Translations under genes and position numbers: made by a program
NCBI RefSeq assembly: GCF_965641715.1
Contig: NZ_OZ282453.1
Source of the DNA: Escherichia coli
GTDB taxonomy: Bacteria > Pseudomonadota > Gammaproteobacteria > Enterobacterales > Enterobacteriaceae
Length of the DNA stretch: 64,000 nucleotides
Reading direction: 5' to 3' (one strand)
Notes under the pieces: generated by a model
Told to the model about the DNA's origin: nothing
Seen by the model: the letters and a program-made list of their open reading frames with translations, nothing else
The model's database searches: none
Part shown: positions 22,545-23,147 of the stretch, piece by piece
How the letters are laid out: every line of letters begins with the position of its first letter
Position numbering within the stretch: the first letter of the stretch is position 1

Positions 22545-23147
22545 CTAACTGCATTGTAGCTGTGAGATTTCACTATCGATGGCTTTTATAACCTGTTTAT
22601 AGCGGAGCATGACCTCTTCATGAATCATCATTAATCCGCGGCCGTACTCTGTGGCTATGATTGTATATCTTTTCAGGTGTGCAAGATGTTCTTTGTTGCC
22701 AGTAATGTCACTTGCAACCTGCGTGGAGTCCAGCCGTTCGATAAGCGCATTATTGCCGCGATAGGAATCAATTAGGCTTCTTGCGCTTGTATAAAAAGCC
22801 ACAATTTTTGAGAGTGTTTCTCTATGAACTTCAGGTAGGGATGCCGAGTTGGTTTCATAGAACGTGAAGTAGTTTTGAGTAATGGGGAAAATGTTATCGA
22901 ACGGTGAGTTCCGATCGTATTTTTCGATTTCTTCTGCCATTCTGGCCTGATACAGTTTAATCAGTGAATCTATTTCCTCTCTGACACCCAATAGCGTTGT
23001 TATACGCTTCTCTCTGGCCGCTGTTGCCTGCTGTTTTGCCTGCTGTTTCACCTGAGTTGTCACTCCTATCATCGTGAAACAGCCACCTAAAAGAGCTGCT
23101 AAAAATGCGGAGATGAGATCTGAATATTCGTGCCAGAAGGTTAGCAT
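22545..23147 (-). CDS. hypothetical membrane-anchored coiled-coil protein
   Basis: 200-aa ORF with one N-terminal hydrophobic helix (LISAFLAALLGGCFTMIGV) then charged helical region. Confidence 0.4.
   Translation of the reverse strand: MLTFWHEYSDLISAFLAALLGGCFTMIGVTTQVKQQAKQQATAAREKRITTLLGVREEIDSLIKLYQARMAEEIEKYDRNSPFDNIFPITQNYFTFYETNSASLPEVHRETLSKIVAFYTSARSLIDSYRGNNALIERLDSTQVASDITGNKEHLAHLKRYTIIATEYGRGLMMIHEEVMLRYKQVIKAIDSEISQLQCS

Follow-up and report, generated by a model that had tools for sequence, protein, structure and literature searches.

A prophage-borne membrane cargo gene of Escherichia coli, candidate exclusion gene and member of an uncharacterized family

Introduction

The lactococcal proteins of the Sie2009 type are small, carry one N-terminal membrane anchor, are encoded between int and the repressor gene, and block DNA injection. 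HK97 gp15, the first "moron" protein, is a small inner-membrane protein that excludes superinfecting phages at the DNA-entry step (Cumby et al. 2012; reviewed in PMC3594210). P22 SieA, an inner-membrane protein of 162-164 residues, is expressed from the prophage and is sufficient alone, and its best-conserved motif is cytoplasmic; members of the SieA family have three (or four) transmembrane (TM) helices and the motif FxRYPxEAxxFNK (PMC10883804). Described here is a gene encoding a 200-residue protein in a stretch of 64,000 nucleotides of Escherichia coli DNA (contig NZ_OZ282453.1 of assembly GCF_965641715.1), hereafter referred to as the window, together with the 24-bp DNA element that bounds the gene on both sides. 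The gene belongs to the membrane cargo of a prophage and is a candidate for an exclusion function; its family is uncharacterized.

The same element is present in annotated phages. The stretches labeled "left inverted repeat" and "right inverted repeat" in the Z-region records of P2-EC46 and P2-EC48 (AJ512680, AJ512681) both contain it, and the cassette genes in these records are called "putative lysogenic conversion proteins". The element is also found in P2 itself, and the lambda genome (J02459) contains a single intact copy at 27323-27349, beyond attP as viewed from int. The Z-region records belong to the work of Nilsson, Karlsson, and Haggard-Ljungquist in Mol Biol Evol 2004, 21:1.

Results

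The open reading frame (ORF) of 200 codons is a real gene. Its counterpart in E. coli TL20, WP_053275929.1, is 100% identical and is labeled "hypothetical protein". Eight homologous loci, counted as five genera, were aligned; their sources are E. coli, Serratia, Dickeya, Cronobacter, and two unassigned contigs. Of the 201 columns at each codon position, 39 vary at position 1, 19 at position 2, and 93 at position 3. This concentration of changes at the third position shows that the protein is under purifying selection. Both the ORF and the single N-terminal TM helix had been noted in an earlier reading of the window from its letters alone (the sequence-only reading), and both are borne out. The Kyte-Doolittle mean over 19 residues reaches 2.16 at residues 11-29, and a second hydrophobic segment is absent. 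The helix displays a small-residue motif, with glycine at position 17 in 86%, at position 21 in 71%, and at position 22 in 91% of the family. Lysines and arginines within 15 residues of the TM helix average 0.2 on the N-terminal side and 3.6 on the C-terminal side, and the C-terminal side has the larger number in 65 of 66 members. This skew, taken together with the positive-inside rule, would place the bulk of the protein in the cytoplasm. The predicted topology is thus N-out/C-in, with ∼10 residues outside and a bundle of ∼170 residues in the cytoplasm.

A model calculated with AlphaFold2 from a 66-sequence alignment has a pLDDT of 97 and a pTM of 0.85. It consists of a continuous helix from residues 2 to 75, a loop formed by residues 76-94, and two further helices delineated by residues 109-149 and 152-199. 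The predicted fold is a compact helical bundle rather than an extended coiled coil, and hence the helical character assigned to this region by the sequence-only reading is retained and its coiled coil is not. The conserved polar and aromatic residues are E58, Y66, Y93, F94, Y97, N100, Y119 (100%), D127, N132, N133, Y168, and H176.

The family is widespread, yet it has no entry in the four libraries searched (Pfam, NCBIfam, PHROGs, and PADLOC-DB 2.0.0), none of which holds a family common among the 66 aligned members. Close relatives retrieved by a word-indexed search fall into 26 clusters, all from Enterobacterales and all "hypothetical". An exhaustive HMMER search returned 520 clusters at E ≤ 1e-3 and 120 at E ≤ 1e-10, where clusters are defined at 50% identity; nearly all are 186-230 residues in length with end-to-end matches, and all are unnamed. 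Likewise, the proteins retrieved by a profile search were all unnamed or "hypothetical" and devoid of Pfam domains; their sources include Thiohalophilus, Candidatus Dadabacteria, Pluralibacter, Klebsiella, and Biostraticola. A tandem paralogue considered in Thiohalophilus was rejected at an hhalign probability of 1.6%. For the 200-residue protein, Pfam at E ≤ 0.1 yielded one spurious match only. The YebO family of Pfam matched neither this protein nor any of the 66 members. The only PADLOC match is to ZorB, with an E-value of 0.002-0.003, in one of the 66 members, and it covers the N-terminal TM helix and the adjacent helix. A profile search of the sequences in the PDB revealed no relative among solved structures, and Foldseek gave no match at E ≤ 0.001 against the PDB and BFVD. 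There was no tblastn match in 50,697 phage records, and the gene was found at only five loci in a viral contig collection searched with a narrow alignment. A search of the literature by accession and keywords, including the supplements of PMC9122126, revealed no characterization or phenotype of the protein.

The gene is the only one inside a cassette of ∼850 bp, the limits of which can be read from DNA alignments across genera. Conservation begins ∼170 nucleotides before the ATG and ends ∼80 nucleotides past the stop codon, and in eight contexts the flanks beyond are unrelated. Both ends are marked by a 24-bp imperfect inverted repeat with the consensus GTCYGCT-nTGAGCGArr-AGCGGAC, positioned 160-174 nucleotides upstream of the ATG and 54-57 nucleotides after the stop codon in every close-homologue context. 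The coordinates of these and other features are listed in Table 1. The downstream copy is the only match with five or fewer mismatches in the 64-kb window, and shuffled sequences give 0.2. The upstream copy is a hybrid: its left arm and center are those of the intact element present at the same place in lambda and in E. coli D7, and its right part is that of the cassette, so that the breakpoint falls within the conserved center. Doublets of a minus and a plus copy 42 nucleotides apart, such as the one at the downstream end, are found at many loci.

Beyond the downstream element lies the start of the next cassette. In E. coli NADC1036 and Bongo, the same start runs on into the gene for an unrelated 299-residue protein (WP_024248228.1) without a family match, and in viral contigs this right-flank class is joined to five different left-flank classes (among the matches listed). 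Cronobacter muytjensii displays an array in the order element, gene, element, DUF4238 gene, element. A role for the element as a stable hairpin or terminator was considered and rejected: its folding z-scores range from -0.1 to -1.6, its folding energy is no better than that of shuffled sequences, and it has no T-run. The element is treated here as a DNA site and not as an RNA structure.

The cassette may carry its own expression signals. A perfect 8-bp palindrome, GGTTAAAT-N7-ATTTAACC, overlaps a conserved -10-like hexamer, CATAAT (23170-23175), that lies 23-28 nucleotides upstream of the ATG and reads TATAAT in Serratia and Cronobacter. Palindrome and hexamer travel with the gene across genera, and in C. 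muytjensii both arms of the palindrome are altered with complementarity kept; its folding z-score is -1.5. Judging from these sequences, the two could be the gene's own promoter and operator, or a 5′ hairpin. A conserved hidden RNA in the leader was rejected, in that 40-60% of the leader columns vary, similar to third codon positions. Terminator-like sites are absent from 22000-23600.

Table 1. Features of the cassette and of its surroundings, in window coordinates.
Feature	Position	Strand	Sequence	Basis or remark
Whole single-gene cassette: element, ∼150-nucleotide leader with putative promoter, coding sequence, element doublet	22468..23321	minus		Cross-genus DNA alignment
Coding sequence, 200-residue protein, predicted bitopic in the membrane	22545..23147	minus		ATG start; ORF list; third-codon-position bias
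Single TM helix, codons 11-29	23061..23117	minus	LISAFLAALLGGCFTMIGV	Hydropathy and family conservation
Perfect 8-bp palindrome	23164..23186	minus	GGTTAAAT-N7-ATTTAACC	Sequence and invariant columns of cross-genus alignment
Upstream element, degenerate copy	23298..23321	minus	GCCTGTTATGAACGAGGATTGGCC	
Downstream element	22468..22491	minus	GTCGGCTGTGAGCGATCAACGGAC	Two mismatches to consensus GTCCGCTNTGAGCGANNAGCGGAC
Degenerate inverted partner of downstream element	22510..22533	plus		Six mismatches; 42 nucleotides away
Start of next cassette	22406..22467	minus	ATTGCTAAYAGCCTTCTGTGTGAAT...	Interrupted by IS3 remnant
IS3-family pseudogene (transposase remnant), between the two cargo genes	∼22162-22404			TL20 annotation mapped onto the window
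447-residue HExxH ORF	20721-22064	minus		
intS, 397-residue integrase	23482-24675			Phage_integrase, Phage_int_M, and Arm-DNA-bind_3 domains; named intS in the near-identical TL20 locus
tRNA	24804-24875			Rfam; tRNA-Arg in TL20 annotation

The element is by no means confined to this locus. At least 120 loci in viral contigs match a 16-base core pattern and, among the matches listed, to which the following counts of viral loci also refer, 126 element sites share sequence outside the search pattern. In a set of 114 distinct sites, one left-flank class with 10 occurrences pairs with 9-10 different right-flank classes, and one right-flank class with five occurrences pairs with five different left-flank classes. 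Since left and right flanks are combined combinatorially, the element coincides with mosaic breakpoints. It bounds 83 segments of 0.3-4.5 kb that encode 122 proteins, and this cargo includes ThsA/ThsB (Thoeris), PtuA/PtuB (Septu), LmuA (Lamassu), HamA (Hachiman), SduA (Shedu), RT_UG17 (DRT), SAVED-HNH, DarT, AbiV, and SIR2. Approximately half of the complete E. coli genomes carry one to six detectable copies, which are intergenic in every row listed. Within a set of species-representative genomes, many Enterobacterales, along with some Alteromonadales-like genera, have several copies per genome; the single copies in unrelated phyla agree with the chance expectation, calculated at ∼140. No linked recombinase was seen beside the element.

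Close homologues, with protein identities of 85-100% across E. coli, Serratia, Dickeya, Cronobacter, Enterobacter, and Citrobacter, occupy no fewer than nine distinct genomic settings that span at least six genera, and their neighbors differ each time. No partner gene is conserved across the dozen or so contexts. The neighbors of 299, 261, 447, 170, and 93 residues were each considered as a shared partner and rejected, as they are mutually unrelated. In a small Serratia island the cassette is followed by an orphan gene of 261 codons, a copy of the element, and then a Septu system (PtuA, E-value 7e-40; PtuB, E-value 5e-22), two genes downstream of the homologue. In Dickeya, the homologue lies beside a DUF3916 gene and a gene for a 1964-residue DUF4011 helicase, and in C. 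muytjensii it follows icd and precedes a DUF4238 gene. A DUF4238 protein has been reported to confer strong resistance to T7 (PMC9122126). The copies at prophage ends come after umuDC or tail fibers: that of C. sakazakii follows umuDC at the end of a lambdoid prophage, with no called gene within ∼1.6 kb downstream, and that of E. coli EC5502 adjoins torT. Another homologue lies in an integrase island, and yet another follows the partition genes in an element that has phage tail genes as well.

Plasmids of ∼105-120 kb, mostly typed as non-mobilizable, carry the gene in Enterobacter, Citrobacter, Salmonella, and E. coli. Some 30-odd of those from Enterobacter and Citrobacter have it at 90-97.5% protein identity, as at 85699-86301 of NC_032102.1, and the one plasmid examined (IncFIB) also has a phage N-6-adenine methyltransferase gene. 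These Enterobacter and Citrobacter plasmids are possibly phage-plasmids. In elements of Pluralibacter and Serratia, distant homologues of 201 or 208 residues occupy a position flanked by the capsid and primase modules. The genes of these elements include those for capsid, portal, terminase, AlpA, and a D5-type primase, and the stretch read contains no tail genes. In their architecture, the elements resemble capsid-forming satellites of the phage-inducible chromosomal island type. After 14 nucleotides, the distant homologue is followed by a gene for a 170-residue protein with a C-terminal TM helix, and the pair is opposite in strand to the surrounding genes; it may represent a two-gene variant.

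Taken together, the homologues are situated at prophage ends, in accessory slots of satellites, in variable regions of large plasmids, and in defense islands. The sequence-only reading had suggested a superinfection-exclusion or abortive-infection factor and had held that kinship with phage lysis or structural proteins would speak against it. The homologues are neither, and this objection therefore does not apply.

With respect to its setting in the window, the cassette occupies the cargo slot of an argW-integrated prophage, between the integrase and the invertible tail-fiber segment. Bases 20300-24900 of the window are 99.9% identical to E. coli TL20, in which the annotated order is yfdC, tRNA-Arg, intS, hypothetical protein, IS3 pseudogene, hypothetical protein, truncated recombinase, and tail-fiber genes. 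The integrase, the IS3 remnant, and the 447-codon HExxH gene are indeed located as the sequence-only reading had placed them. The stop codon of intS is separated by 334 nucleotides from the 200-codon ORF, which lies on its downstream side. The tail genes of the host prophage include baseplate J, DUF2612, and the invertible tail-fiber segment. In E. coli PEC122 pinE is followed directly by intS, with no cargo, in E. coli D7 the slot has other content, and in NADC1036 and Bongo it holds the 200-codon gene together with the gene for the 299-residue protein. The G+C content is 0.36-0.41 at 21-23 kb versus 0.47-0.58 across most of the window (∼0.50 in the flanks). A search of 20300-24900 with Rfam found nothing except the tRNA.

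Several smaller features can also be noted. The ∼120-140 nucleotides between the intS stop codon and the element (window 23326-23445) show homology, as judged by eye, to lambda ∼27350-27480, even though IntS is not lambda Int, and a plus-strand ORF of 67 codons at 23348-23551 overlaps this lambda-like stretch. The lambda segment probably lies close to sib/tI, in which case transcripts of int would stop short of the cassette. A pin/gin-type invertase gene is cut down to 54 codons at 20382-20546, and a GC-rich stem-loop was seen by eye near the 447-codon gene at ∼20590-20620. The product of the latter gene has weak, motif-local matches only: Lit peptidase (E-value 6e-4), PD-Lambda-2_B (7e-4), CapP (0.02), and Peptidase_M48 (0.04).

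Discussion

The reading that we favor, albeit tentatively, is that of a bitopic inner-membrane protein, the sole gene product of an autonomous exchanged cassette, that most likely functions as a single-gene anti-phage (abortive-infection) protein. An anti-phage role is plausible by association. The lines of support are circumstantial, namely the position in a cargo slot, the repeated proximity to defense genes, the carriage on phage-related elements and plasmids, and the nature of other element-bounded cargo. According to this scheme, the cassette would be exchanged among prophages, large plasmids, and chromosomal islands at the 24-bp element, which would mark cargo-exchange points in P2-like and lambdoid phages. 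The protein would be expressed from the lysogen by way of its own promoter and would act at the cytoplasmic face of the inner membrane. There, a cluster formed by E58, Y66, Y93, F94, Y119, D127, N132, N133, Y168, and H176 might bind a phage product or an injection-associated component. The TM helices would subsequently associate via G17-x3-G21-G22 and compromise the membrane, leading to abortive infection.

Several points weigh against this proposal. The cargo bounded by the element also includes genes with no defensive role, among them LysR regulators, GNAT acetyltransferases, MFS transporters, and dehydrogenases, and for this reason the association is weak evidence. A single TM helix would be a minimal effector, and the topology itself rests on prediction. 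A consensus scan around the gene gave no sigma-70 promoter and no intrinsic terminator above thresholds; the silence with regard to the promoter can be attributed to a weak -35 region. By a gene-only search the gene is rare in E. coli, occurring in 10 of 5426 complete genomes and at full length in eight. Finally, there is no homology to any characterized defense, exclusion, toxin, or pore protein.

Non-defense cargo of this kind would be expected if the protein instead served lysogenic conversion or housekeeping, as a tethered adaptor, regulator, or stress factor that brings a niche benefit to the host. We consider this a lesser possibility, but one with some weight. The Z-region records speak only of putative lysogenic conversion, the generic four-helix bundle is sensor- or adaptor-like, and one member, on a metagenomic contig, lies between metabolic operons beside a Fic/HTH pair. 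What such a role leaves unaccounted for is the repeated proximity to validated defense genes, and also a patchy occurrence together with very high nucleotide identity between genera, as is typical of arms-race cargo.

[quoted passage not shown] The gene does occupy an expressed-cargo position beside int in a prophage, its product has an inner-membrane anchor, and HK97 gp15 provides a precedent for a small, moron-encoded inner-membrane protein (PMC3594210). With only ∼10 residues predicted to lie outside, however, there would be little to meet a periplasmic injection conduit, and the protein is related in neither sequence nor fold to SieA, gp15/YebO, or the Imm families. The family, moreover, is found without an attached phage in chromosomal islands, on plasmids, and in distant phyla. 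Its extension beyond prophages and enterobacteria (Thiohalophilus, Dadabacteria, and metagenome-assembled genomes) is a better fit to a general defense gene than to a phage-lineage-specific exclusion factor. An abortive-infection sensor-effector is preferred over exclusion because nearly the whole protein, its invariant polar cluster included, is predicted to be cytoplasmic and because the family extends far from phage, but our confidence in this preference is low.

The proximity of the 447-codon gene, which is on the same strand ∼0.5 kb away and encodes a metallopeptidase-like motif, raises the issue of whether the two cargo genes form a single system, as does the pairing of the distant Pluralibacter/Serratia homologue with its C-tail-anchored neighbor. 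This explanation has been largely refuted and is now very improbable. The IS3 remnant and a boundary element lie between the two genes, the 447-codon gene has its own strong promoter match (11/12, TGGACA-18-TATAAT at 22116-22087), and the downstream neighbors in different hosts are mutually unrelated. Among the complete E. coli genomes, coverage of the 4.6-kb stretch with both cargo genes reaches 80% or more in TL20 alone. The suggestion in the sequence-only reading that the two are independent cargo rather than an operon is thus upheld, given a single-gene module with an element on each side and a variable downstream neighbor. A phage lysis (holin-like) or virion structural protein, to which the small size, the one TM helix, and marginal holin matches (PHROG, 1e-4; Pfam, 0.009) might point, is refuted by context and has next to no chance of being correct, in that those matches are confined to single members, in about a dozen contexts the gene is never part of a lysis or morphogenesis module and has no adjacent lysis genes, and the phage records and viral contigs searched hold the gene as sparsely as noted above.

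A broader proposal, doubtful as a whole, joins two claims: that the protein represents a new single-gene membrane-anchored anti-phage family of at least 520 clusters with the bundle as its sensor, and that the cassette is a natural substrate for a site-specific exchange system acting at the 24-bp element. Such a system would move morons and defense genes among lambdoid phages, P2-like phages, large plasmids, and Enterobacterales chromosomal islands, and, if the exchange reading is true, cassettes would be traded much as in integrons but with no integrase linked to them. Should the protein prove to be anti-phage, it would constitute a compact one-gene system whose family is absent from all four libraries, and one that comes with a structural model of very high confidence and with obvious residues for mutation. 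The well-defined mobile unit may, in fact, be a more valuable result than the protein. The mobility of a moron is seen here with unusual clarity, the boundaries of the cassette falling always at the same 24-bp element. How morons and defense genes insert at phage hot spots is an old question, for which the cassette and the lambda element provide a defined donor and target.

How does this locus compare with systems that have been described? Like HK97 gp15, it is a prophage-carried extra gene of different G+C content that encodes an inner-membrane protein. The gp15 protein, however, belongs to the YebO family and is encoded inside the tail operon, and the 200-residue protein is unrelated to it in sequence and has a large predicted cytoplasmic domain. 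With respect to SieA, there is one TM helix rather than three or four, and FxRYPxEAxxFNK is absent from both the sequence and the family consensus. The Sie2009-type proteins come from Gram-positive hosts and show no detectable similarity, as judged by missing PHROG and Pfam matches only. The likeness to ZorB, the MotB-like stator protein of Zorya, amounts to the weak PADLOC match in the TM region; no ZorA/MotA or other Zorya neighbor occurs in any context, there is no OmpA-like peptidoglycan-binding domain, and the model is all-helical. The 4HB_MCP-type sensor domains of chemoreceptors and TorS share a generic four-helix-bundle fold with it.

By analogy only, the cassette resembles those of integrons, which are likewise units of ∼1 kb bounded by short imperfect inverted repeats, arrayed, and shuffled between contexts. 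It differs from them in that there is no IntI, the neighboring integrase being a P4-type phage integrase with an Arm-DNA-bind_3 domain, and an integrase gene is missing from the flanks read in most other contexts. In addition, the element lacks the GTTRRRY core of an attC site (by eye), and the cassette has its own putative promoter.

When the locus is compared with morons in the sense of Juhala et al. 2000, as summarized in PMC3594210, the likeness is that the cargo is present or absent at the same position in related prophages and that its G+C content differs from that of the surrounding phage genes. The difference is that the 200-codon gene has no factor-independent terminator of its own. 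The cassettes of the P2 Z region are similar in that foreign genes of low G+C content, one to three in number, sit between copies of the same element together with promoters of their own, the promoter being putative in the present cassette. Their annotated repeats, however, are ∼100 nucleotides in length and inverted, and they lie between tail genes G and FI. In contrast, the cassette described here is situated beside intS in an argW prophage, its element copies are direct, and only the core of ∼24 nucleotides is shared. Furthermore, unlike the P2 Z-region type, it is also found outside of phages.

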